Source: Ignicoccus pacificus DSM 13166
GTDB lineage: Archaea > Thermoproteota > Thermoprotei_A > Sulfolobales > Ignicoccaceae
Assembly: GCA_025340205.1 (NCBI GenBank)
Contig: CP006868.1
Span: 450,001-482,000, forward strand
DNA: 32,000 nucleotides
Direction: 5' to 3'
The notes under the pieces were generated by a model. The model was not told the origin of the DNA, did not search any database, and saw only the letters and a list, made by a program, of their open reading frames with translations. Positions within the stretch are counted from its first letter, which is position 1; every line of letters begins with the position of its first letter. Both the position numbers and the translations under genes were made by a program. This document shows, piece by piece, positions 4,494-31,987 of the stretch.

Positions 4494-5201
4494 GTGTGGA
4501 AGACGTACGTGGTGCTTGCCGGAGGAGAGAGCAAGAGGTTCGGGAAGGATAAGCTCATAGCCTTAGTAGATGGGAGAAGGGTAATAGATAGGGTGTTAGA
4601 TGAGATAGGCGAGGATCACGTGCTCCTAACGGTCAGCGAGGAGAGGTGCAAGCTATACGGAGCCAAGAGGTGCTTGTACGATAACGGAAGGGGGCCAGCG
4701 GAGGCGCTCCTAGCGCTTGATGGTTCCTTCACATCCCTTTCCGGAGACCTACCTTGGATAAAGAGAGAGGTATTGGAAAGGCTGGAGGCCTTCAGGAGGT
4801 ACTTCGGGGCTCAAGTAGCTGTCCCGTTACACGGAAAGGGATTCCTCGAATCCTTGATGATAAGCGTTGAGGATATCAATCCTATAAAGAGGAGATTAAA
4901 GGAGAGGGAAATACCTAGAACCTTGAGGGTAACTGACATAATAAGGATCTCGGAAAAGGTCGTCTTCGTGGGATCGAAGTTCCTCAGCAGGGATCCCAGA
5001 GTCTTTGCCCATGTGAACACTCAGGAGGACCTCAAGATAGGAGCTCCCAAGGAGCCATTAGGGGAAAGGATAGTGGAACTTGAACTAGACTTTCATCCTT
5101 GTGAAGATCCATTAAGAGAGGTTGAACTCTATAGGAGGTACGGTCTCAAGCAGATGGAGCTCCACGCGCTTAAGGACTTGAGGATTTGCAAGGGAAGCTA
5201 G
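4494..5201 (+). CDS. MobA-like NTP-transferase (molybdenum cofactor guanylyl/cytidylyl-transferase-like)
   Basis: VVLAGGESKRFGKDKL matches the MobA LAGG-x-S-x-R-[FM]-G-x-DK motif. I moved the start from 4392 to the in-frame GTG at 4494, which has GGAGGGG 4-10 nt upstream. Confidence 0.55.
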   Translation: MWKTYVVLAGGESKRFGKDKLIALVDGRRVIDRVLDEIGEDHVLLTVSEERCKLYGAKRCLYDNGRGPAEALLALDGSFTSLSGDLPWIKREVLERLEAFRRYFGAQVAVPLHGKGFLESLMISVEDINPIKRRLKEREIPRTLRVTDIIRISEKVVFVGSKFLSRDPRVFAHVNTQEDLKIGAPKEPLGERIVELELDFHPCEDPLREVELYRRYGLKQMELHALKDLRICKGS

Positions 5202-5845: not shown

Positions 5846-6583
5846 CTAGTCATTTATCCATTTCTTTACCTTCACCTTGAACCCCATTTCCTTGAACGCC
5901 TTCTCCCACTCCTTAACCTCCTCCTCCGGCATGTTCCCCTTGTAGCAATGTTCGGAGCACCAAGCCTTATCCCTAGGATCCGTTAGGGGCTCAGTAACCA
6001 ATGGATTGACCACTATAACTACCTTCTCCCTATCGAAGGGCTCCACCAACTTCTTTATTTCGCCTATATACCTTATGGTTAATCCCTTTGCTACCGGAAT
6101 CCTAAGCTCCACAGGCTTCTTGCTCTGAGCGAGCTTGTTCAAGCACTTCTTGAAGTTGTTGAAAAAGATCCTCGCATTTCCATTAACCCCGTAGAGGGGT
6201 TCGAAGGGCATCTTGATGTCAGTAGCTACGTGATCGGCTAAATCGATAAGCTCCAGCGATTGGGGAATTGTGCAGTTGGTGTTCAGGGAGAACTCCACTC
6301 CCTCCTCCTTCGAGACCTTAGCTAGAGTTCTAACCAAGTTGGGCTGAAGAGCTGGCTCTCCTCCGGTCAGGTGAAGGTAATCCACGAAGTCCTTAGCATC
6401 CCTCAGCTCCTCCCTGAACTTCTCCAAAGGTATCTCGAAGCACCCTTGCCACTCCGCAACCTTCCAGTTGTGACAGAAGGGGCACTTCAAGTTGCAGCCG
6501 CAGGCCCAAGTTGTAAAGGTGATCCTCCCGACTACATCAACCAAGGAGAAAGGCTTCCATCCAGCTATGAGCATTCGGTCCAC
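5846..6583 (-). CDS. Radical-SAM activating enzyme (anaerobic ribonucleotide reductase / PFL activase-like)
   Basis: CGCNLKCPFCHNW is a CxxxCxxC cluster in the NrdG-type C-N-L-x-C-x-x-C-H-N context. LTGGEPAL is the SAM-binding GGE motif. Confidence 0.75.
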   Translation of the reverse strand: MDRMLIAGWKPFSLVDVVGRITFTTWACGCNLKCPFCHNWKVAEWQGCFEIPLEKFREELRDAKDFVDYLHLTGGEPALQPNLVRTLAKVSKEEGVEFSLNTNCTIPQSLELIDLADHVATDIKMPFEPLYGVNGNARIFFNNFKKCLNKLAQSKKPVELRIPVAKGLTIRYIGEIKKLVEPFDREKVVIVVNPLVTEPLTDPRDKAWCSEHCYKGNMPEEEVKEWEKAFKEMGFKVKVKKWIND

Positions 6584-6720
6584 CTAATCCCCTTCTAGGT
6601 ATAGGAAGGGTTTAAACGGGGAGGGAGTAATCTGGAGGTATAGCGCAGAAGCGAGATTAAGTGAGAGTTTATTGTATAACATATATTACAGATGCCGTAT
6701 TACATAGTTGAGGGGTTTCC

Positions 6721-24056: not shown

Positions 24057-24135
24057 GCGGCGGTCGTCTAGCCTGGACTAGGACGCCGGCCTGCCACGCC
24101 GGAGATCCCGGGTTCAAATCCCGGCCGCCGCACCA
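24057..24135 (+). tRNA. tRNA-Gly (anticodon GCC), with CCA encoded
   Basis: I folded the cloverleaf by hand. Acceptor stem is GCGGCGG/CCGCCGC and D stem is GUCU/GGAC. Anticodon stem is CCGGC/GCCGG with loop CUGCCAC. Variable loop is AGAUC and T arm is CCGGG-UUCAAAU-CCCGG. Discriminator is A, followed by CCA. Confidence 0.92.
24075..24135 (+). repeat. attL: a 61-bp direct repeat that is the 3' three-quarters of the functional tRNA-Gly
   Basis: ggactaggacgccggcctgccacgccggagatcccgggttcaaatcccggccgccgcacca is identical to 31927-31987. Confidence 0.9.
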
Positions 24136-24271
24136 ATTACCTTCTTCTAGCCTCTCCCATGTCGAGCATCTCGAGGAGGGGCACGCTCTAGCGGTTGACT
24201 GTTCGAAAACAAGAAGCTCTCGAAGTTCTTCCCTCGAACCCTCCATCAGTTGCACGGATCATATCAACCCC

Positions 24272-25555
24272 ATGCAACTGAAGTTAGTAAGCGAACTTAA
24301 TGCTTGGGTCAGAGTCAAGCTAATCCGTTCAGCTCTCGAACACTTTACAGTGGAAGAACTCTCAAAGGCCCTGGGCAAGAGCAAGAGCACTATCTACCGC
24401 TACTCCAAAGGAGATGTAATCCCAAGCGAGGAAGTCGTAGCGAAGGTCTTGGCGTTGCTCTCTGTTGACGTAGCCTTCGCTTCAGTGGGCAAGGAAGTCC
24501 TCAAGGCCTACGGCTTGCTCGACCACGAAGGCAAGCCGAGGCTCGTACCCATGCTAGCTATCCTGAGCGTTGCCTTGGGAGATCCTCTCCTCAGGAAGTT
24601 AGTCCTCGAGTGGGTTTCAAGAGCTTTAGGCAACGAGGTGACTGAGCTCAAGCCCGAACCGGCTTTGCTCATGAAGTGGGAAGACGTCTTCGAGGCCTAC
24701 CTCAAAGAGCGTAAGGGCATAAGTGAGGAGCAAATCGCTTACTACCGCTCGCTCTTTGAAAGGTTCTTCGAGGGCAAGGCGTTAACCGAAGAGTTCGTGG
24801 AAGAAGCCTCGAAGTTCCCAGGGTGGGCGAGGGTCGTCTTTAGGCACTACTTGAACTGGTTGTTACTCGAGCGGAGGGTTGACAGCGAGTTCGTAAGCTG
24901 GGCCTTGAAGAAGATTCCTACGAGGGGCTACAAGGTAAGCGTGAAGGTCCATGAGATAAGCTTTGAGGAGGTCACGAAGACCCTGACTGTGCTTAAACAA
25001 GAGAACGAAGAGATCTATTGGCTCTATCGCCTCCTCCTCGAGAGCGGGCTCAGGCTAGCCCACGCCTTGGAGTTAATCGCTTCATGGAATCCCACCGAGA
25101 AGGTCTTCGTGGAACCCTTGGGCAAGGTTGAGGAGAGGTGCAAGTGCTTTGAAACGCACTGCCGCTGCTGGCTGGGGATCAAGAGGGGCAAGAAGTCCGC
25201 GCTCTGGGCTTTCATGAGCAAGGAGACCTTTGAGGTGCTGAACGAGATAGCTCCGACCAAGCTCTCGAGACACTGCGTGAGCAAGAAGGCGAAGGCTCTG
25301 GAAATCCTTGAGCCCTCGAAGCTTCGCAAGTTCTCCGAGCAATACATGAAGGAGGCGTTCGCCAAGAAGGCACAAGAGCTGGGCGAGCACCCTGAGGTCA
25401 TAATGCAGTTCGTGCAGGGGAGGACCGGCGAGCTGAAGGTCTCTCATTTGTACTACGACAACTTACTGAGGAAGACCGATTTCGTTTACCCGAGCTGGTT
25501 GGAGTTCTTGGGAGATGTGCGCTTTGGTCCTTTGGAGAGAGGACTCGTGGGATAG
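24272..25555 (+). CDS. int: Archaeal-type tyrosine recombinase / integrase
   Basis: It lies 136 nt from the att repeat and has an N-terminal HTH (SKSTIYRYSKGD). The C-terminal catalytic-like series is ESGLRLAHAL (Arg I), SKLRKFSEQY (xxR box), QGRTGE (Arg in place of His/Trp, as in archaeal integrases) and SHLYY (Tyr nucleophile). Confidence 0.75.
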   Translation: MQLKLVSELNAWVRVKLIRSALEHFTVEELSKALGKSKSTIYRYSKGDVIPSEEVVAKVLALLSVDVAFASVGKEVLKAYGLLDHEGKPRLVPMLAILSVALGDPLLRKLVLEWVSRALGNEVTELKPEPALLMKWEDVFEAYLKERKGISEEQIAYYRSLFERFFEGKALTEEFVEEASKFPGWARVVFRHYLNWLLLERRVDSEFVSWALKKIPTRGYKVSVKVHEISFEEVTKTLTVLKQENEEIYWLYRLLLESGLRLAHALELIASWNPTEKVFVEPLGKVEERCKCFETHCRCWLGIKRGKKSALWAFMSKETFEVLNEIAPTKLSRHCVSKKAKALEILEPSKLRKFSEQYMKEAFAKKAQELGEHPEVIMQFVQGRTGELKVSHLYYDNLLRKTDFVYPSWLEFLGDVRFGPLERGLVG

Positions 25556-25566
25556 GTGTTGTCTTG

Positions 25567-25606
25567 GGACCAGGGGCCCCCGCCTCTCGGACCAGGGGCC
25601 CCCGCC
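25567..25606. repeat. Two tandem copies of GGACCAGGGGCCCCCGCC with a 22-nt period, just downstream of int
   Basis: Identical 18-mers lie at 25567-25584 and 25589-25606. Each contains the GGGGCCCC palindrome. Confidence 0.8.
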
Positions 25607-25660
25607 CGTTCCATGATAACATAGTATACTGGGGTTATTAAGTTTTTGTCAACTACAGTG

Positions 25661-26653
25661 TTATTGAAGTATGCTATCACAATTAAGATATATCTTATTG
25701 CTCCCTGGCTTTCTACACAACTTGGGATCACTGGAATACGTAAGTAACTTACAATTGAACTCCAACTTATCAAACCACAGCTTCACCGACTCCTTAATCT
25801 CCTGAGACACCCATCTACCTATTAAGATCCTCCTAAGCGAATACCCAACCAAATCGGCTAACTGTATCAACGGGTTGAGTTGAGATTCGTGTAACTGAAA
25901 GGTAATTATTTTAGAGTAATCAACCCTATTGGATGTCGTAGTTATTTCATCCTCCCCAAAGGACACTAAGAGAGCAGTTATCTTTGCATAGAGACTGGAT
26001 GGAAGGACGTGAGCGTCTTTATCTATCCACAGAATAACTTCTGAATTATCATGTGCTGTAACGAATCCCACAATGCGTTTTAAAAGCTCTGATAAGACAT
26101 AGCCTTTAGCGATTGGTATTATGTTAAATTCAAGTAGCTCCGGTATCTTAACTATGATGTCTAGCTCGTCACTCCTTCTAGAATGTAGGTAATCTTGAAG
26201 AGCATCAATGAGGAGGTATTGCGTTCTGATCTTTAAACATTCCGTGTTTGTTGCTACGAAAGCGTATGTCCATTTAGTGTCAGCGCTTAGTCTGATGTGC
26301 TCCCTGAGTACATCTAACACCTTAGAGAAGACTTGTTCAATAACGTCATGGGGCACATTAAGATCTCTAAGTGCATTGAACAGGAAACGTCCCTTTACCT
26401 CAAAAGGGATGTCGCTTCTCTTCTTGTCTCTCATACGTTTTAGTACATCCTCGACAGATTTGTTCAGCTGTAGTTCTTGAAAAGCTTGAGAGAGAAGTTC
26501 CTTCCAGTACTCTTTGGAAACCAGCTTGTATGTGTCATTGTAGATGTCAAGCGGTACTATAAGCGCGCCCATAGCGAATATTGATTCATGACTGGTTATT
26601 GGTATATTCTCTTCTACATTGCCGGTTTCGTCAATACCCGCGGCGAATAACAT
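25661..26653 (-). CDS. DUF3800-like protein, carried as low-GC cargo within the element
   Basis: The N-terminus MLFAAGIDETGN matches the h-D-E-[ST]-G hallmark at the start of DUF3800 proteins. GGTGGGG sits 6 nt upstream of the ATG. The region is about 38-40% GC by my line counts, against roughly 50-60% in flanking lines. Confidence 0.5.
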   Translation of the reverse strand: MLFAAGIDETGNVEENIPITSHESIFAMGALIVPLDIYNDTYKLVSKEYWKELLSQAFQELQLNKSVEDVLKRMRDKKRSDIPFEVKGRFLFNALRDLNVPHDVIEQVFSKVLDVLREHIRLSADTKWTYAFVATNTECLKIRTQYLLIDALQDYLHSRRSDELDIIVKIPELLEFNIIPIAKGYVLSELLKRIVGFVTAHDNSEVILWIDKDAHVLPSSLYAKITALLVSFGEDEITTTSNRVDYSKIITFQLHESQLNPLIQLADLVGYSLRRILIGRWVSQEIKESVKLWFDKLEFNCKLLTYSSDPKLCRKPGSNKIYLNCDSILQ

Positions 26654-26699
26654 ATATTCCCCACCAATTGTCCTCTTGTCTACCCGTGTTTAACTTTTG

Positions 26700-27002
26700 T
26701 TAGAAGACTTTGTTACTTAGTGAATCCGACCTCCACGAGGCTCTACGGGTCTTCGCCCTCCTCACCTCCCTCAGCACCTCGTGGAGTTTCTTGGCGACTT
26801 CTTGATCACACTCGAAGAGTAAGGCCATTGCAAGCGTTATTTCCAAGTTGTTGAGTCTGTAGCGAGATCTCAAGATAGCGAGCAAGCCTTCGAACTTCGA
26901 GTGGGCGTTGATGCGGGAGGCGGAAAGGGGAAGGCCCAGGTAGTGGAGGGCTTGTTGCTTGAAGTTCCCGAGACAAGTGTGTACTTGTGCTGGGCTGTCC
27001 AC
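26700..27002 (-). CDS. Hypothetical protein of the element
   Basis: A 100-aa ORF upstream of, and co-oriented with, the DUF3800-like gene. No motif recognised, and several overlapping alternative-frame ORFs make the call uncertain. Confidence 0.35.
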   Translation of the reverse strand: MDSPAQVHTCLGNFKQQALHYLGLPLSASRINAHSKFEGLLAILRSRYRLNNLEITLAMALLFECDQEVAKKLHEVLREVRRAKTRRASWRSDSLSNKVF

Positions 27003-27121
27003 CTTCGCTCACCGTTGCTCCGGAGGGTACCTCGTGTGCACCCGAAAGGAGGGCTCGCGGCGGAGCGCTTGTTCGTGTGGGGAAAGGCCCGGTGGTAGGG
27101 CAAGGCCGAAATCGTTCGGAT

Positions 27122-27136
27122 CCCCCCCCCCCCCCC
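27122..27136. repeat. C15 homopolymer (G15 on the minus strand)
   Basis: I counted 15 consecutive C residues directly, in non-coding DNA of the element. Confidence 0.95.
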
Positions 27137-27185
27137 GTTTAAGGACTTAAGGGGGTTTGTGTTTCACCAATTGATGGTCCCAGCT

Positions 27186-27399
27186 GGCCCAGAGGCCCAG
27201 CGCTTCTGGGGGATACCCGGGGCGAGTGAGAAAAACTGCGAGGGGGCCTCGGGGAAACCACTGGGCCTCTGGGCCCTCGTTTACCATCACATATTTACTT
27301 GGTGATTATGGTTTCACCAATGATCTGAAATCCAAATCACTAAGGTCTCCGCCGTCAAGGGCCCAGAAGGCCCAGCGGGGCCCAGTTGGGAGCTGGGCC
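27186..27399. repeat. GGCCCAG iteron-like array with 5 direct and 3 inverted copies, including a perfect 15-bp inverted repeat
   Basis: GGCCCAG occurs at 27186, 27194, 27360, 27369 and 27379. CTGGGCC occurs at 27261, 27269 and 27393. ggcccagaggcccag (27186-27200) is the exact reverse complement of 27261-27275, with a 60-nt spacer. Confidence 0.85.
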
Positions 27400-27531
27400 C
27401 TGAACGGCAGCGGTGTTACGGTATCGAACTTAAAGGTACATCTCTAATCACTCCCCTCTCGATTTACGGAAGGGAGAGGGAACGACTAGCGAGTGGTCCT
27501 GTTGGGCCCTCAGGAGGCTGAGAAGTTTGTT

Positions 27532-30453
27532 TCAGTTTAGTAATTCAGCGAGTTCTTCCGCCCCAACTTCCTCTTCCTTTAGCTTCAGCGAAATTATGAA
27601 GAGCGAGGTTGGTTCCAGATCGAGTTTGACTTTGTAACCTTTTTTAATGCTTCCGCAAAGCTTCACCTTACTCCTCTGCTCCCTCCTCTTCTTCAGTGCT
27701 CCCAACTCCTCCAACCACCTCGTAACGCTCAGCAACGCCACATTCTCTCCGTATCTCTTCCTTATCCAGTTGTTCACCTCCTCGAAGAAGTTCTTGTTTG
27801 CGAATAAGCAAACGTCGTTACCCTCCACGAACATTACCGCTCCGTTCTCTTCAAACGCAACGCAAGAGGGCGGATAGCCTTGAATTCCAGTAGGCCAATC
27901 GAGGGCCTCCTTGTCGTAAACGTAGAGCTCTAACTCCTTGATCTCCTTGTCCAACACCCTCCTTATGAACGAGTAGAACGCTTGTCTGTAGTCGAAGCTC
28001 TCCCTCCCGACGGCGCTCTCCGTCAGCCCCTCGAAATCTGGCTTGGGGAACGGCTCTAGTCCATACTCCTCATAGAGTTCCCTCCAAGCCTGGTAGCCTA
28101 GCTCAAGAAGTTCCAGTACCTTCCTCCTCCTCGGGAGCCCCTTGAGTTCCCTCTTCCTCTCTTCAAAGAGCTTTGCGAACTTCTCGAGGACCTTCAGGCC
28201 AACAGTCTTTACCGCCTTGATCCTCTCAAGGTCCATCGAGTCCGGGGTGAAACCCCTCGCCTTCTCAACATCTATCCCGTATTCAGCGCTCAAGTAGAGC
28301 CTCACGAACTTATCCTCCGAGTCCAGCCCTATCCTCAACCCCTCGTTGGCTGTCATCACTACGCCTCTCAAGTTAAGGTAGACTCCTTGGACCGTCGGTC
28401 CGCTTTTCTCTGCCATTACCACGTTGGTGGCTGCTCTGTGGAGCTCTTTCAAAGCCCTCTCGTCCATGTTGTGGGCCTCATCAAGAACCAGCAAGAGCTT
28501 GGCTTGGGCTAAAGCCTTCTGAGTCTCGTACTCGGTCCTTGGTAGAGCTGCGTCGGGCTCGACGTTGTTGAGTAAGGCCAAGAACTCCGCTATGGTGCTC
28601 TTACCTCCTCCCCTCTTACCCTCGATCACCAAGTGAGGGAGATAGCTCAGCTCCTTGCGGATTTCGTAAGCTAAGGCCAGAGCGGGGTAGAAGCTCAGAG
28701 CGAAGGCGGGAACCTCGTGGTCCTTGTAGCCCTCAACGAACCTCCTAACGACCTCAAGCCCCAGCTCGATATCTCCTTCGAGCTCAGGCTCCCACTTGTG
28801 AACGAACCTCCACCTCGGCCTGTAACCAGTCTCCCTCGCCAGCAGTAGTTTCCCTTCAACGAGCCAAGGTCCTACTGCGTACCAAGTCTCGACCTCCTCC
28901 TCAGCCATTTCCTCTATCAAACGTTTGAAGGCTTCCTTGTCGTCCAGGAAACTGAGCTGTTTGAGGTTGTTCGCTACGTCCTCTAGTGTCCCAACGAGTT
29001 CCAGCTCCTTGCCTTTGACCTCAAGTCTGACCGAGTAGTAGAGGCCCAAGTTTAGCGGGAGACCCTCGGGGAGTATCTTGATCAGTTTGACCTCCTTGGG
29101 GATAGCGCTTGTTATCAACCTAGCCTCGCCTTGGTTGTTGATGACGTAAACTCCTTCCCTCCCAGTCGTTACACTGCGCACAGCTTTGCCTTGTCTCCTC
29201 CTGAGCCAAGCGACCCCGGAGCCCCTCGCAATTCCCAAGATCCTCTTTATCGTATTGAGGACCTCTCCGACTTGCTTAGCGGCCTCTTCATCATCCAGTC
29301 CGTCCTCCTTCTTTATTTTGAGTAATTCCTCCCTCAGGCACTTGAGCCCGCAAAGGTTTACCCCTTGCCTCTTTTCATAGTGGTAGTCCACTTGGTAGAG
29401 TCTCTCGCTCTTCTCCTCATCGTCCTCAGCCAAGAGTTCGATTACCCTTCTGGCGCTCTCCTTCTCTATCCCGGCTTTTATCATGACTCCGAGCAAGTCC
29501 TTGACTATCTCGTGTCTGTGGCCAGGCTTGTAGAATGGCTTGACAATTTGCACCAACTCGAGAATCCTCGTGTTATCGAGACGTCTTAAAGGCTGGTGGC
29601 GACCCTTGACCGCGATGCCGTTCTTCGACCCCCTAATCGTATCGAGCGGAGGTAAGACCTCCTCGATGACGCTGGTGCTCACCGGTAGCGCTCCGTCCTT
29701 GATCCAGAACGTTGGTTTGGGCCACTCGTACTTCCAGTTGATCGTTCCGATGAGCCTCATGACCCTCGCCGGGTCCTTGATCCTCTCGTCGGCCGGGAGG
29801 CCGAACTCCTTCCCGAGCGCGATGAAGCGCTCCTGGTACTTCCTCCAATCGTTGGGCTTCACCGGATTGAGCAACGTAACGTAGAGGTGGAACCCTCCTC
29901 CACTGAAGGCGAAGTTGAAGTCTATGTCATTCTCCTCGAGGAACGCTAGAAACTCCGCTAGCTTCTCTAGGCTCTCTTCTTCAAACTTACCCTTGTAGTC
30001 TAGGTCGAGCACTAGGACGTTGAACTCTTTGACGTCCTCATTCGAGTGCCTCTTGTTGTAGGAGACCCAAGCTCTGAGCCTCTCATTGAGCTCGAAGTCA
30101 TTATCTTTCAGCTCCTCGAGCTTCACTATCCCAAGTGCCACGTAGGTCTCAGCGTTACCCAAGGCCTCAAGGAAGTCTCTATCCTCCAAGAGCTTTAGCA
30201 GATCACCCTTCCGCTCGAAGGCTAACGTTAGCGAGCCCCTCTCCTCCTTCTGCCAAATGATAACAGGCTTGTCCTCGTTCCCCGTTATCAGCCTCAAGTG
30301 TTCAACGATCTCGCTGGTCCTAACCTTGGGTTCTTCCCTAGTAGCCCGCTCGAGGGCTTCCTTGAGCCCCTTTGTCCAAACGTTAACTTTTTCAGGACCA
30401 TTGGACCCTTCGTTATCGGGTAGCTGCGAGGGGGAGGTGACTACGGCCGTCAT
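27532..30453 (-). CDS. Replication protein: an N-terminal AEP prim-pol domain fused to a C-terminal P-loop (SF3/D5-like) helicase
   Basis: AEP motifs: I is VLVLDLDYK, II is SGGGFHLYV and III is DPARVMRLIGTINWK. Walker A is GKRGGGKST and Walker B is LLVLDEAHN. I chose the ATG at 30453 (MTAVVTSPS...), which overlaps the upstream ORF stop as ATGA, rather than the track start at 30567. Confidence 0.85.
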   Translation of the reverse strand: MTAVVTSPSQLPDNEGSNGPEKVNVWTKGLKEALERATREEPKVRTSEIVEHLRLITGNEDKPVIIWQKEERGSLTLAFERKGDLLKLLEDRDFLEALGNAETYVALGIVKLEELKDNDFELNERLRAWVSYNKRHSNEDVKEFNVLVLDLDYKGKFEEESLEKLAEFLAFLEENDIDFNFAFSGGGFHLYVTLLNPVKPNDWRKYQERFIALGKEFGLPADERIKDPARVMRLIGTINWKYEWPKPTFWIKDGALPVSTSVIEEVLPPLDTIRGSKNGIAVKGRHQPLRRLDNTRILELVQIVKPFYKPGHRHEIVKDLLGVMIKAGIEKESARRVIELLAEDDEEKSERLYQVDYHYEKRQGVNLCGLKCLREELLKIKKEDGLDDEEAAKQVGEVLNTIKRILGIARGSGVAWLRRRQGKAVRSVTTGREGVYVINNQGEARLITSAIPKEVKLIKILPEGLPLNLGLYYSVRLEVKGKELELVGTLEDVANNLKQLSFLDDKEAFKRLIEEMAEEEVETWYAVGPWLVEGKLLLARETGYRPRWRFVHKWEPELEGDIELGLEVVRRFVEGYKDHEVPAFALSFYPALALAYEIRKELSYLPHLVIEGKRGGGKSTIAEFLALLNNVEPDAALPRTEYETQKALAQAKLLLVLDEAHNMDERALKELHRAATNVVMAEKSGPTVQGVYLNLRGVVMTANEGLRIGLDSEDKFVRLYLSAEYGIDVEKARGFTPDSMDLERIKAVKTVGLKVLEKFAKLFEERKRELKGLPRRRKVLELLELGYQAWRELYEEYGLEPFPKPDFEGLTESAVGRESFDYRQAFYSFIRRVLDKEIKELELYVYDKEALDWPTGIQGYPPSCVAFEENGAVMFVEGNDVCLFANKNFFEEVNNWIRKRYGENVALLSVTRWLEELGALKKRREQRSKVKLCGSIKKGYKVKLDLEPTSLFIISLKLKEEEVGAEELAELLN

Positions 30454-30656
30454 TGGTCCACCACCTCCTCTCCCTCCTTCAAGCTTCCGCACATCGCCTC
30501 GTACAACAGGAGAGCCCTCGTCACGACCTCGTTGTCCGCATGGCCGTGGAAGACGTAACCTTCGCACATCTCCCTCGCCATCTCCTCTGCTTCCTTCCTG
30601 AGCTCGGAACCAAGGTCCTTGAGGACTTCCTCGATACGTTGCTCGATCTCCTTCAT
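30450..30656 (-). CDS. Hypothetical small protein (68 aa) of the element operon
   Basis: It has 4-nt overlaps with both neighbouring ORFs, and is acidic and helical. Confidence 0.5.
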   Translation of the reverse strand: MKEIEQRIEEVLKDLGSELRKEAEEMAREMCEGYVFHGHADNEVVTRALLLYEAMCGSLKEGEEVVDQ

Positions 30657-30979
30657 TGCTTACACCTCCTCACAGCTCTCTTTAAGGCCTCCTTGGTGAG
30701 CGGAGTTTGAGGAAGCTCCTCGCCTTTGCAGATCCTTTCTACGAGCCTCTCGATCTCTAGCTCGTTCACCACCACTTCGGGCTCATAGCCCAAGCGCTTC
30801 AACTCCTTGTCGACGAGCCTCTCGAGAGTCTCCCTGAGGCTTTGGTCGTAAACCGTTGCGAGGAAGCAGAGCTTAGCGTGGAGCCCCTCGCTCGCTGGCA
30901 GAGTCTTAGGCTTTCCATTTATTACCTGGTACTTTGCCACAGTGGTGGCCGCGAGGTCGCGGAGCGCGGCTTTTCTCAC
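30653..30979 (-). CDS. Small protein, possibly a ribbon-helix-helix DNA-binding protein
   Basis: KTLPASEGLHAKLCFLATVYDQSLRETLERLVDKEL resembles a strand-helix-helix layout. It overlaps both neighbours by 4 nt. Confidence 0.4.
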   Translation of the reverse strand: MRKAALRDLAATTVAKYQVINGKPKTLPASEGLHAKLCFLATVYDQSLRETLERLVDKELKRLGYEPEVVVNELEIERLVERICKGEELPQTPLTKEALKRAVRRCKQ

Positions 30980-31398
30980 TGCGCCTCACCCCCAACCCTC
31001 TTGATTATCTCTTCTGCCTCCTTCAGCATCTTACACTTACTGAGCTTCTCGAGTAGGGCCTTGAGCTCGTCCTCGTGCTTCCTCATTATCTCCAGCAAGG
31101 CCTTAGTTATCGCCACGTTCGGTAGTCTGTGCTCTTTCCTCAGCTCGATTACCGCCTCTGCGAAGTCTCTCGCCACCTTGAGCTTGGTGAATTCCTTCTC
31201 TTCAAAAAAGCTCGAGAACTTCTCGCAGCTTTCTTGTTTTCCGGTCTTCACAGTTCCACCCGTATCTACCTGGGGTACCAGTGGTTGCTCATGGTGAGTC
31301 GAATCTTGCATCTCATTTCCCCTCACCCAACGTAGGGTACCTAGTCCGTTGCGCACGCTCCCTCCCGTATCCCCCAAGGGTACCAACCGCTCTGCCAT
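30976..31398 (-). CDS. Hypothetical protein, with its C-terminal half paralogous to ORF 31434-31787
   Basis: I preferred the ATG at 31398, which has GGTGAGGGAG 5 nt upstream. The track start (GTG at 31440) and the ATG at 31311 are alternatives. The 5' part lies in a tandem duplication. Confidence 0.5.
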   Translation of the reverse strand: MAERLVPLGDTGGSVRNGLGTLRWVRGNEMQDSTHHEQPLVPQVDTGGTVKTGKQESCEKFSSFFEEKEFTKLKVARDFAEAVIELRKEHRLPNVAITKALLEIMRKHEDELKALLEKLSKCKMLKEAEEIIKRVGGEAQ

Positions 31399-31430
31399 GG
31401 TTACTCCCTCACCCTTACCGAGGGTACCAT
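31240..31430. repeat. Imperfect tandem duplication (units of about 65-85 nt) with GGGTACC cores
   Basis: Unit 31259-31341 (cccgtatctacctggggtacca...cctcacccaacgtagggtacc) aligns with unit 31364-31428 (cccgtatcccccaagggtacca...cctcacccttaccgagggtacc). Each unit carries a GGTGAGGG SD-like box followed by an ATG on the minus strand. Confidence 0.7.
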
Positions 31431-31433
31431 TGC

Positions 31434-31787
31434 TCACCACTTCATCCTCGCCAAGCGACTATCCCACTTGTACACTTCTTTCGCCCTCAGCTTCTTGCAG
31501 AATCTGATGTCCTCGATGGTCTTCCTGAACTCCTCCTCGTGCCTCTTCAGGACGTAGTAAGCGGCCATAGTTACTGTGTGGTTCGTCGTGTTCAGCTCCT
31601 TCCTTAGCCTCAGCACCAGCAAGGCGAACCAGCTTGAAACGGTGAGCCTCGACTTGATTTCGAGCAAGTGGTCCTCCTCTTCGATGTCCTTGCACCTAGG
31701 GTGCTTCTGCCACTCGTACTCCTCCACAAGCATCCCCGCCCAGAGCTGGGGTACCAGTGCGCTAGCGGTGAAACGGAGTAGTCGCAT
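31434..31787 (-). CDS. Hypothetical protein, first gene of the element's leftward operon and paralog of ORF 30976-31398
   Basis: An ungapped hand alignment of RLRKELNTTNHTVTMAAYYVLKRHEEEFRKTIEDIRFCKKLRAKEVYK with ELRKEHRLPNVAITKALLEIMRKHEDELKALLEKLSKCKMLKEAEEIIK gives about one third identity. Confidence 0.5.
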   Translation of the reverse strand: MRLLRFTASALVPQLWAGMLVEEYEWQKHPRCKDIEEEDHLLEIKSRLTVSSWFALLVLRLRKELNTTNHTVTMAAYYVLKRHEEEFRKTIEDIRFCKKLRAKEVYKWDSRLARMKW

Positions 31788-31926
31788 TTTGATGGCGAGT
31801 ACTGGGACGAAAGGTCTGCCTAGCAGAGAAATTGGTTAGACCTTCGAAGGAAGCGGGCATAACGGTGAAACGGAAAGCTTCAGCTGGGAGCTCGCTTGAG
31901 TAAGAGGAGGAAAAGGAACTCGAGGG

Positions 31927-31987
31927 GGACTAGGACGCCGGCCTGCCACGCCGGAGATCCCGGGTTCAAATCCCGGCCGCCGCACCA
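31927..31987 (+). repeat. attR: the displaced 3' fragment of tRNA-Gly (61 nt)
   Basis: It is identical to 24075-24135. The upstream sequence (aaaggaactcgaggg) cannot form the acceptor or D arms, so this is not a second tRNA gene. Confidence 0.9.

Follow-up and report, generated by a model that had tools for sequence, protein, structure and literature searches.

The 32-kb stretch of the Ignicoccus pacificus DSM 13166 chromosome analysed here (hereafter the window) carries an integrated element of ~7.9 kb, situated at about 24075-31987 at tRNA-Gly. The element is bounded by a perfect direct repeat of 61 nucleotides (nt), at 24075-24135 and 31927-31987, which forms the core of its attachment (att) sites and derives from the 3' part of tRNA-Gly(GCC), the tRNA side lying at 24057-24135. 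Its gene content comprises an integrase, a DUF3800 gene, IPA_02750, a replicase gene (rep; IPA_02755) and several small open reading frames (ORFs), and all genes from 31787 to 25661 lie on the same strand. A 529-bp gap (27003-27531) beginning at the replicase stop codon is thus enclosed by two co-oriented genes, rep and IPA_02750, and is the subject of this study, in which the evidence is computational throughout. The gap is non-coding, belongs to no Rfam family and has no match in plasmid and phage DNA collections (blastn). It splits into two modules with different evolutionary behaviour: a rep-proximal module (27172-27531), considered below as a candidate origin of replication, and a distal module (27003-27171) adjoining IPA_02750.

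Sister elements are represented by L001, a 13-kb contig of an archaeal metagenome-assembled genome that is also integrated at tRNA-Gly, by L003, a 6-kb metagenome contig, and by L005, a 3-kb contig; a metagenome scan contributed nineteen further loci with relatives of the C-terminal two-thirds of the replicase. Genome contigs scanned with the single replicase protein gave no relatives, and the alignment scan found just one short contig there (the same as L002). Neither of the alignments, nor a leader 20-mer, recovered any relative from viral contigs, and a DNA scan of metagenome contigs with a leader 22-mer gave no match.

The replicase

The ORF upstream of the gap is 100% identical to IPA_02755 of I. 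pacificus, whose annotated start is 30453. Because its product is homologous to pIT3 RepA (residues 328-939, 32% identity, E 4e-76, tblastn), matches DUF5906 (AAA; E 7e-5, under the Pfam cut-off) with Walker A/B residues invariant in the replicase alignment, weakly matches the DNA polymerase/primase family phrog_695 (E 1.4e-4) and has relatives that carry Prim-Pol (PF09250, Pfam), IPA_02755 is by homology a pRN/pIT3-type, RepA-like replicase, with a predicted N-terminal primase-polymerase and a superfamily 3 (SF3) helicase. The gap therefore lies directly downstream of a replicase with the domain combination typical of this plasmid family. A PDB sequence search with the replicase gave no match.

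The replicase has a mosaic make-up. The primase-polymerase part, comprising its first ~270 residues, is 78% identical to the L001 replicase, while the remainder is unalignable with that protein and instead resembles the pIT3/L003-type replicases at 32-35% identity, placing the recombination boundary at about position 29644 of the window (compared with L001 4209-7040). L001 also carries, at 792-2297, a 501-aa gene with a stretch 75% DNA-identical to the primase-polymerase part of the window replicase gene (30367-29671); this gene weakly matches AAA_15 and amounts to a second replicase-like copy, though a partial one.

Repeat arrays after rep and their exchange between elements

The rep-proximal module is dominated by the heptamer GGCCCAG and its complement CTGGGCC (Table 1). 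An initial annotation, made from the sequence alone, had counted eight copies in the gap, and this count holds: 8 of the 12 copies in the window fall within 27186-27399, whereas shuffles of the whole window contained 5.8 ± 2.2 copies, that is, ~0.04 expected per 214 nt. The 7-mer count of the gap is reached in 8 of 1265 sliding windows of 400 nt across the 32 kb, and the gap is the densest. The heptamers are clustered beyond chance, with a spacing of 8-10 nt and roughly helical phasing, as in iteron-type origins.

The cluster nearest to rep sits inside an inverted repeat with 16-nt arms (27351-27366 and 27393-27408). It adjoins an AT-rich spacer that lies between opposed iteron clusters, a further trait of iteron-type origins, and we propose this spacer as a candidate DNA-unwinding element. 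It is flanked by the arms of another inverted repeat, 80 nt apart (27263-27277 and 27358-27372), and harbours both the pair TTGGTGA/TCACCAA (27299-27305 and 27314-27320) and, at 27311-27321, one of the two copies of the 11-mer GTTTCACCAAT, the other beginning at 27161. On the far side of the spacer, two heptamers face two inverted ones, with 8-nt spacing, a 60-nt spacer and a degenerate third copy at 27177-27183. The perfect 15-bp inverted repeat that they form (27186-27200 and 27261-27275) makes up the core of a longer repeat of 34 nt with 76% complementarity (27172-27205 and 27256-27289). Folded as single-stranded DNA, the whole inverted repeat (27172-27289) reaches -31.8 kcal/mol (z = -3.8 against shuffles); its size is that expected of the ~100-nt inverted repeat of a pRN/pIT3-type origin, the pRN1 stem-loop giving z = -5.7 when folded in the same way. 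The repeats described in the initial annotation, namely the 15-bp inverted repeat with its 60-nt separation, the two 11-mers, TTGGTGA/TCACCAA, the CCCTCTC...GAGAGGG hairpin and the C15 tract, were all recovered.

The same annotation had seen no convincing ORF in the gap, and we concur. The longest, of 73 aa on the + strand, has no Pfam match and overlies sequence that lacks conservation in L001, and in the corresponding gaps of L001 and L003 no gene had been called. A coding function was accordingly rejected, there being no conserved ORF and homopolymer length differences (see below) that are not multiples of three. The small hairpin just past the rep stop codon lacks a T-run on the rep strand and is placed like a dispensable putative terminator hairpin of pRN1 (PMC4234260); a terminator role for it is only a guess.

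Table 1. Features of the gap and its surroundings. Positions refer to the window unless another locus or reference point is named.
Feature	Position	Strand	Remarks
Replicase IPA_02755	27532..30453	-	ORF finder extends to 30567 (1011-codon ORF)
Small hairpin CTCAG-N4-CTGAG	27509..27522	-	10 nt past rep stop
Hairpin CCCTCTC...GAGAGGG	27454-27460 / 27474-27480		element-specific; not conserved in L001
GGCCCAG copies	27186, 27194, 27360, 27369, 27379	+
GGCCCAG copies	27261, 27269, 27393	-
Iteron cluster 1	27351..27408		4 GGCCCAG copies: 27360, 27369, 27379 (+), 27393 (-); 9-10 nt spacing
AT-rich spacer	27280..27350		57-70% A+T vs 41% for the region; between opposed iteron clusters
Imperfect inverted repeat, 118 nt	27172..27289		2 GGCCCAG (27186-27200) facing 2 CTGGGCC (27261-27275)
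Rep-strand order: 1 inverted + 3 direct heptamers	133-172 nt from stop codon	rep strand
Rep-strand order: AT-rich stretch	~181-250 nt from stop codon	rep strand
Rep-strand order: 2 inverted heptamers	257-271 nt from stop codon	rep strand	followed by 60-nt GC-rich spacer
Rep-strand order: 2 direct + 1 degenerate heptamer	332-355 nt from stop codon	rep strand
TTGGTGAAAC box	27161..27171	-	first conserved position of distal module; 3/3 related elements, just before G tract
C15 tract (G15 on rep strand)	27122..27136		sole homopolymer of at least 8 nt in the window
Conserved non-coding upstream region of IPA_02750	27003..27121	-	invariant 25-mer GCCCTACCACCGGGCCTTTCCCCAC at 27077-27101
IPA_02750	26700..27002	-	100 aa, helical; 91% aa identity to L001
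GGTACCC, window	27025-27031, 31273-31428 (four copies), 31749-31755
GGTACCC, L001	L001 2910, 3281, 3324, 3386, 7787
GGTACCC, L005	L005 569-725, 1317
154-aa ORF	30976-31440	-	first half is the non-coding GGTACCC array
Cargo gene, DUF3800 protein	25661-26653	-	counterpart position in L001: 1092-aa protein without known function
Integrase	24272-25555		SSV-type, Phage_integr_3 with N-terminal HTH_3 domain; intact, adjoins tRNA
Window vs L001 (blastn)	31777-29644		85%; small ORFs + first ~270 replicase residues
Window vs L001 (blastn)	27136-26761		88.6%; distal gap + IPA_02750
Window vs L001 (blastn)	25507-24054		78%; integrase + tRNA

Comparison with L001 suggests that the array and part of the replicase behave as a unit. 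Between the two elements, 27172-27531 and the replicase beyond residue ~270 are unalignable, and the alignment places the true start of the conserved distal block at the TTGGTGAAAC box (27161-27170). All element proteins are 78-92% identical except the central and C-terminal parts of the replicase and the cargo gene. The iteron motif differs as well (GGCCCAG in the window, GGTAGC in L001), while the leader and its GGTACCC boxes, described below, are unchanged. In L001 two copies of GCTACC are followed by a 78-nt AT-rich spacer, three copies of GGTAGC and then GCTAC; both elements thus have opposed clusters round an AT-rich spacer of ~80 nt, without mutual sequence similarity. From these alignments it appears that the iteron motif was exchanged together with the helicase/C-terminal part of the replicase and the cargo gene, no other conserved protein of the element taking part, which lends indirect support to binding of the motif by the replicase. 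L003 and L013 follow a similar plan with a TACCTA motif. Set beside the pRN-type pattern of a variable stem-loop with conserved flanks, the gap gives a mixed picture: the array is unalignable with L001 and L003, which have analogous opposed arrays and inverted repeats, but the conserved flank is present on the distal side only, and several relatives have direct rather than inverted arrays. L005 (1-1350) is a Rep-less deletion derivative: at ~L005:1135 its 108-aa ORF is joined to the large inverted repeat halfway along the latter (~27228 in the window), and everything distal to that point is kept, including a single arm of the repeat, TTGGTGAAAC, the leader and the small gene, with a G tract of 6.

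Most other relatives also have arrays of this kind. Among the further loci with enough downstream sequence, a 6-9-mer peculiar to the locus is over-represented after rep in L008, L009, L010, L011, L013 and L016, with 5-12 copies in two clusters, and L001 and L003 likewise have their own over-represented short motif arrayed there. Spacing in the relatives' arrays is mostly 9-12 nt, the clusters lie within ~350 nt past the stop codon (except in L016, at 384-547), and the arrays are usually the most repeat-dense 400 nt of their locus. Several are direct rather than inverted (pIT3, L008, L016). Where replicase C-termini are near-identical, motifs are shared (L003 with L013 and L015 with L016, among 12 loci compared). 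L028 has seven copies of ATGTCCA after rep (6480-6690). The initial annotation had named two findings that would count against its proposal, a lack of repeats in homologous elements and a coding function in them; in fact relatives do have repeats after rep, and the gap is non-coding in them.

Comparison with known origins and weighing of the readings

The only experimentally mapped origin of the pRN/pIT3 family is the putative origin of the Sulfolobus islandicus plasmid pRN1, where two groups found a stem-loop of ~100 nt directly downstream of the replicase gene (orf904) to be needed for replication (Berkner et al. 2014, PMC4234260; Joshua et al. 2013, PMC3869888). This essential cis element was found by deletion and mutation analysis, still works when relocated according to one group, and is variable in sequence among family members, with conserved sequence on its flanks (PMC4234260, PMC3869888). 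A stem mutation could be compensated by introducing the symmetric change on the opposite arm (PMC4234260). In the pRN1 record we found TGTCCA at 5087 and 5096 (+) and at 5166 and 5175 (-), the only four copies of the plasmid and all in the stem arms, in a 2+2 arrangement with 9-nt spacing and a 64-nt spacer. The 2+2 heptamers of the window, with their 8-nt spacing and 60-nt spacer, closely resemble this layout. Other likenesses are the position directly downstream of a primase-polymerase/SF3-helicase replicase gene, the ~100-nt inverted repeat that varies between relatives, with conserved sequence alongside on its distal side, the small hairpin straight after the stop codon, and an unusual G/C homopolymer of 15-17 nt elsewhere in the replicon. 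There are differences as well: the window has another motif, GGCCCAG, whose eight copies form three clusters, together with an AT-rich spacer, where pRN1 has a single 2+2 stem-loop; its inverted repeat begins ~240 nt past the stop codon, as against ~54 nt; and its homopolymer lies between rep and a small gene, whereas that of pRN1 is upstream of a copG-like gene. In addition, the replicases are too distant for tblastn at E 1e-3 (pIT3 was found, pRN1 was not), and the window element is integrated, in a marine Desulfurococcales archaeon.

The closest characterised replicase is the repA product of pIT3 from Saccharolobus solfataricus. In pIT3 (NC_005907) all seven TGTCCA copies lie 63-230 nt past rep, and its iterons, clustered like those of the window, form two groups of 3 and of 4-6 copies with 10-11-nt spacing within 250 nt past rep, with a G15 tract on the rep strand further downstream. 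Unlike those of the window, they are all direct bar one degenerate inverted copy and are built on the motif ATGTCCAT, and the G15 is followed by nine 13-nt tandem repeats that are absent from the window. In pRN2 (L027, 62-157), the stem arms hold two GGAC[AC]G copies 9 nt apart that face two inverted copies.

In the core origin of the polyomavirus simian virus 40 (SV40) and in archaeal chromosomal origins with origin recognition boxes, opposed recognition motifs flank a meltable AT-rich segment, with head-to-head loading of two hexameric helicases, and the SV40 initiator is an SF3 helicase. The proteins and motifs are unrelated to those of the window, whose clusters hold 2-4 copies and lie 60-84 nt apart, and the analogy is mechanistic only. 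Phage P4 has octamer-scale repeats in both orientations at its origin (ori/crr), which are bound by its alpha protein. This single initiator combines primase, SF3 helicase and C-terminal winged helix (as summarised in PMC4234260). The pairing of a multifunctional initiator with short repeats in both orientations recurs in the window, although the P4 primase is of the bacterial Toprim type rather than an archaeo-eukaryotic primase-polymerase, the repeats are unrelated, P4 needs a second site (crr), and binding is demonstrated for P4 and inferred for the window.

Because the replicase belongs to the pRN/pIT3 type, because the position and layout of the gap match those of the pRN1 origin, because arrays follow rep in most relatives, and because motif and replicase part were exchanged as a cassette, we read 27172-27531 as a probable Rep-specific iteron origin of an integrated pRN/pIT3-type plasmid, with 27003-27171 as the control leader of IPA_02750; to this combined reading we would assign a probability of roughly 60%. 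The proposal of the initial annotation that iteron-like arrays beside a rep gene mark a plasmid origin is thereby favoured, and replication would start at the gap. Following the pRN1 model and SF3-helicase initiators in general, recognition of the heptamers would fall to the helicase or C-terminal part of the replicase, and the protein might assemble as opposed hexamers on the inverted clusters, whereupon the AT-rich segment would be melted or the inverted repeat extruded. The first primers would then be laid down by the N-terminal primase-polymerase, and host replication proteins would take over. The main indirect support for such a mechanism is the cassette-like co-replacement of the C-terminal part of the replicase and the motif.

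A number of observations weigh against this origin. For the pRN1 replicase, gel-shift and footprinting experiments gave no specific binding to the downstream region, and on two-dimensional gels origin firing could not be shown (PMC4234260); symmetry or structure may matter more than motif sequence in the pRN1 stem. Among the relatives, only weak arrays occur in L014 and L015; that of the distant L029 is found in a different intergenic gap, away from rep; and L008 and L011 use one and the same iteron even though the last 220 residues of their replicases are just 57% identical. The AlphaFold model of the C-terminal 252 aa of the window replicase (predicted local distance difference test, pLDDT, 55) was too poor for a fold search that might have revealed a winged helix. 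Finally, the integrated copy may be inactive, and short-repeat arrays can alternatively be operators or partition sites.

The first of these alternatives would have the whole gap serve transcription only, as a rep terminator followed by the promoter, operators and long leader of IPA_02750, with GGCCCAG as repressor operators. The co-orientation of the flanking genes suits it, as do a hairpin with a T5 run behind it, read on the rep strand (27251-27229), a TATA-like AT-rich sequence at ~27286-27292, and the conservation of the distal 170 nt with IPA_02750, including a GGTACCC box that also stands before two paralogous genes. We nevertheless consider it unlikely, for the GGCCCAG module swaps with the helicase/C-terminal part of the replicase while the small proteins stay 80-92% identical, and in relatives rep is followed by equivalent arrays regardless of which gene comes next. 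The layout also matches an element that is genetically required for pRN1 replication and movable (PMC4234260), and a scan for bacterial-type promoters and terminators gave counts no higher than in shuffles. An array used for partition or maintenance, that is, a centromere-like site bound by a small DNA-binding protein of the element, seems distinctly unlikely to us. Helically phased short-repeat arrays do typify plasmid partition sites too, and the element encodes several small uncharacterised helical proteins. In pRN1, moreover, the orf80 region is needed for stable maintenance and not for replication (PMC4234260). Yet Pfam revealed no ParA/ParM-type motor among ten window proteins (the element genes except a 68-aa ORF, plus two neighbouring host genes), and none emerged when the small ORFs and the replicase were compared with NCBIfam and PHROGs; the small proteins, which the window and L001 have in common despite their different motifs, are unlikely binding partners.

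One could also place the origin elsewhere in the element, for instance at the four direct GGTACCC repeats (31273-31428), the rep-proximal arrays being otherwise employed. Such a second array does exist, on the gene strand of three elements with 43-62-nt spacing, and the array of the distant L029 lies away from rep; against this, GGTACCC also occurs singly 15-22 nt before three paralogous genes, as fits an operator, the Rep-less L005 retains the 31273-31428-type array, which is therefore not tied to Rep, and in pRN1 the origin was mapped to a site downstream of rep (PMC4234260, PMC3869888). Together these points make a remote origin very unlikely. The inverted repeats might, as the initial annotation had also contemplated, encode a structured non-coding RNA, acting for instance in antisense or copy control or as a cis-regulatory leader. 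The strand does fold better than shuffles (z = -3.3 for the 529 nt and z = -3.8 for a 146-nt core), and the replication operon of pRN1 has known counter-transcripts. Even so, Rfam gave no family at the gathering threshold, with chance-level matches at E > 2 (best 2), and the covariance analysis recommended at the outset found 1 compensatory pair in 30 in the conserved leader, an unfavourable covariation term (+0.46) and a fold no better than shuffles (z = +0.59). The fold of the variable part follows from its inverted iterons, which are purely direct in pIT3, L008 and L016, something that an RNA stem would not tolerate, and we regard a structured RNA as highly improbable.

Two other candidates were rejected. 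Integrase arm-type sites or attP do not fit a gap ~2.9 kb or more from the att core, the integrases of the window and L001 being 82% identical while the motifs differ; and a CRISPR-like or host repeat is at odds with a unit of only 7 nt that is element-specific.

Returning to the Rep-specific iteron origin, it is tempting to speculate, at somewhat less than even odds, that the pRN1/pRN2 'stem-loop' origins and the pIT3-like iteron arrays are one origin type, with paired clusters of a 6-7-nt motif at 8-11 nt spacing and with specificity residing in the helicase/C-terminal part of the replicase, swapped as a cassette. The motifs would then be TGTCCA (pRN1, pIT3, L028), GGAC[AC]G (pRN2) and GGCCCAG (window), and the primase-polymerase domain and the TTGGTGAAAC box may stay constant while the cassette swaps, as comparison of the window with L001 suggests. 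If true, this would provide the motif for recognition described by Berkner et al. as 'not yet identified', together with a natural specificity-swap pair. The window and L001 constitute a natural swap of replicase C-terminal part and iterons that predicts what ORF904-type initiators recognise, and the presence of TGTCCA in the pRN1 stem arms and in the pIT3 and L028 iterons feeds the same prediction, which bears on the best-studied archaeal plasmid. Ignicoccus (Desulfurococcales) also appears to be a new host lineage for pRN/pIT3-type replicons, a literature search having found no description of Ignicoccus integrated plasmids, and rep, the ~360-bp cis region and the integrase with its tRNA-Gly att site are possible parts for an Ignicoccus shuttle vector.

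The proposed IPA_02750 leader and other features of the element

We read the distal module as the promoter, operator and leader of IPA_02750, a gene with two weakly similar paralogues elsewhere in the element. The module is ~87-89% identical in two related elements, and across three elements it is kept as well as the adjacent gene. The upstream region carries a GGTACCC box (27025-27031) 22 nt before the GTG start, along with a Shine-Dalgarno-like GGTGAG motif; no TATA-like box was seen in the module, and an in-frame TGA 9 nt upstream bars extension of the ORF. The initial annotation's suggestion of a control region therefore stands for these distal ~170 nt, conserved upstream of IPA_02750, and not for the remainder of the gap.

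GGTACCC boxes are always on the gene strand, at positions conserved in three elements (window, L001 and L005). One stands 15-22 nt before each of three weakly paralogous ORFs (IPA_02750, an ORF of ~87 aa and an ORF of ~99 aa), and four direct copies with 43-62-nt spacing form the array at 31273-31428. This box is constant where the small proteins are constant, whereas the heptamer changes with the replicase; GGTACCC probably serves a conserved regulator of the element as its operator. An AlphaFold model of IPA_02750 (pLDDT 54) was too poor for a search that might have revealed a DNA-binding fold, and NCBIfam and PHROGs scans of the small ORFs gave no match. The 154-aa ORF whose first half is the GGTACCC array is probably over-called, the L005 equivalent being called at 87 aa (~31239/31251-30976 in the window).

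The homopolymer tract varies in length, with 17 nt in L001 (7680-7696) and 6 in L005. pIT3 has a G15 (L006 539-553) and pRN1 a C17 (L007 2034-2050), such that a G/C homopolymer of 15-17 nt recurs in pRN/pIT3-type replicons of Sulfolobales and Ignicoccus. The pRN1 tract has been called 'highly unusual' and is dispensable for replication (Berkner et al. 2014, PMC4234260). pRN2 is said to share the pyrimidine stretch (PMC4234260), yet its record (NC_002101) contains no G/C run of at least 8 nt, despite that statement. Round the C17 tract of pRN1, upstream of orf56, seven copies of CTAACTC make 1826-2226 the most repeat-dense window of that plasmid. In pIT3, the nine tandem 13-mers after the G15 (GGGGCTAGGGCTA) occupy L006 554-670, and three 33-nt repeats, each with the palindrome TAAGGGGC-GTGA-GCCCCTTA, follow at 728-836. 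At the far end of the window element, a weak Rfam tRNA match at 31924-31982 corresponds to the att copy.

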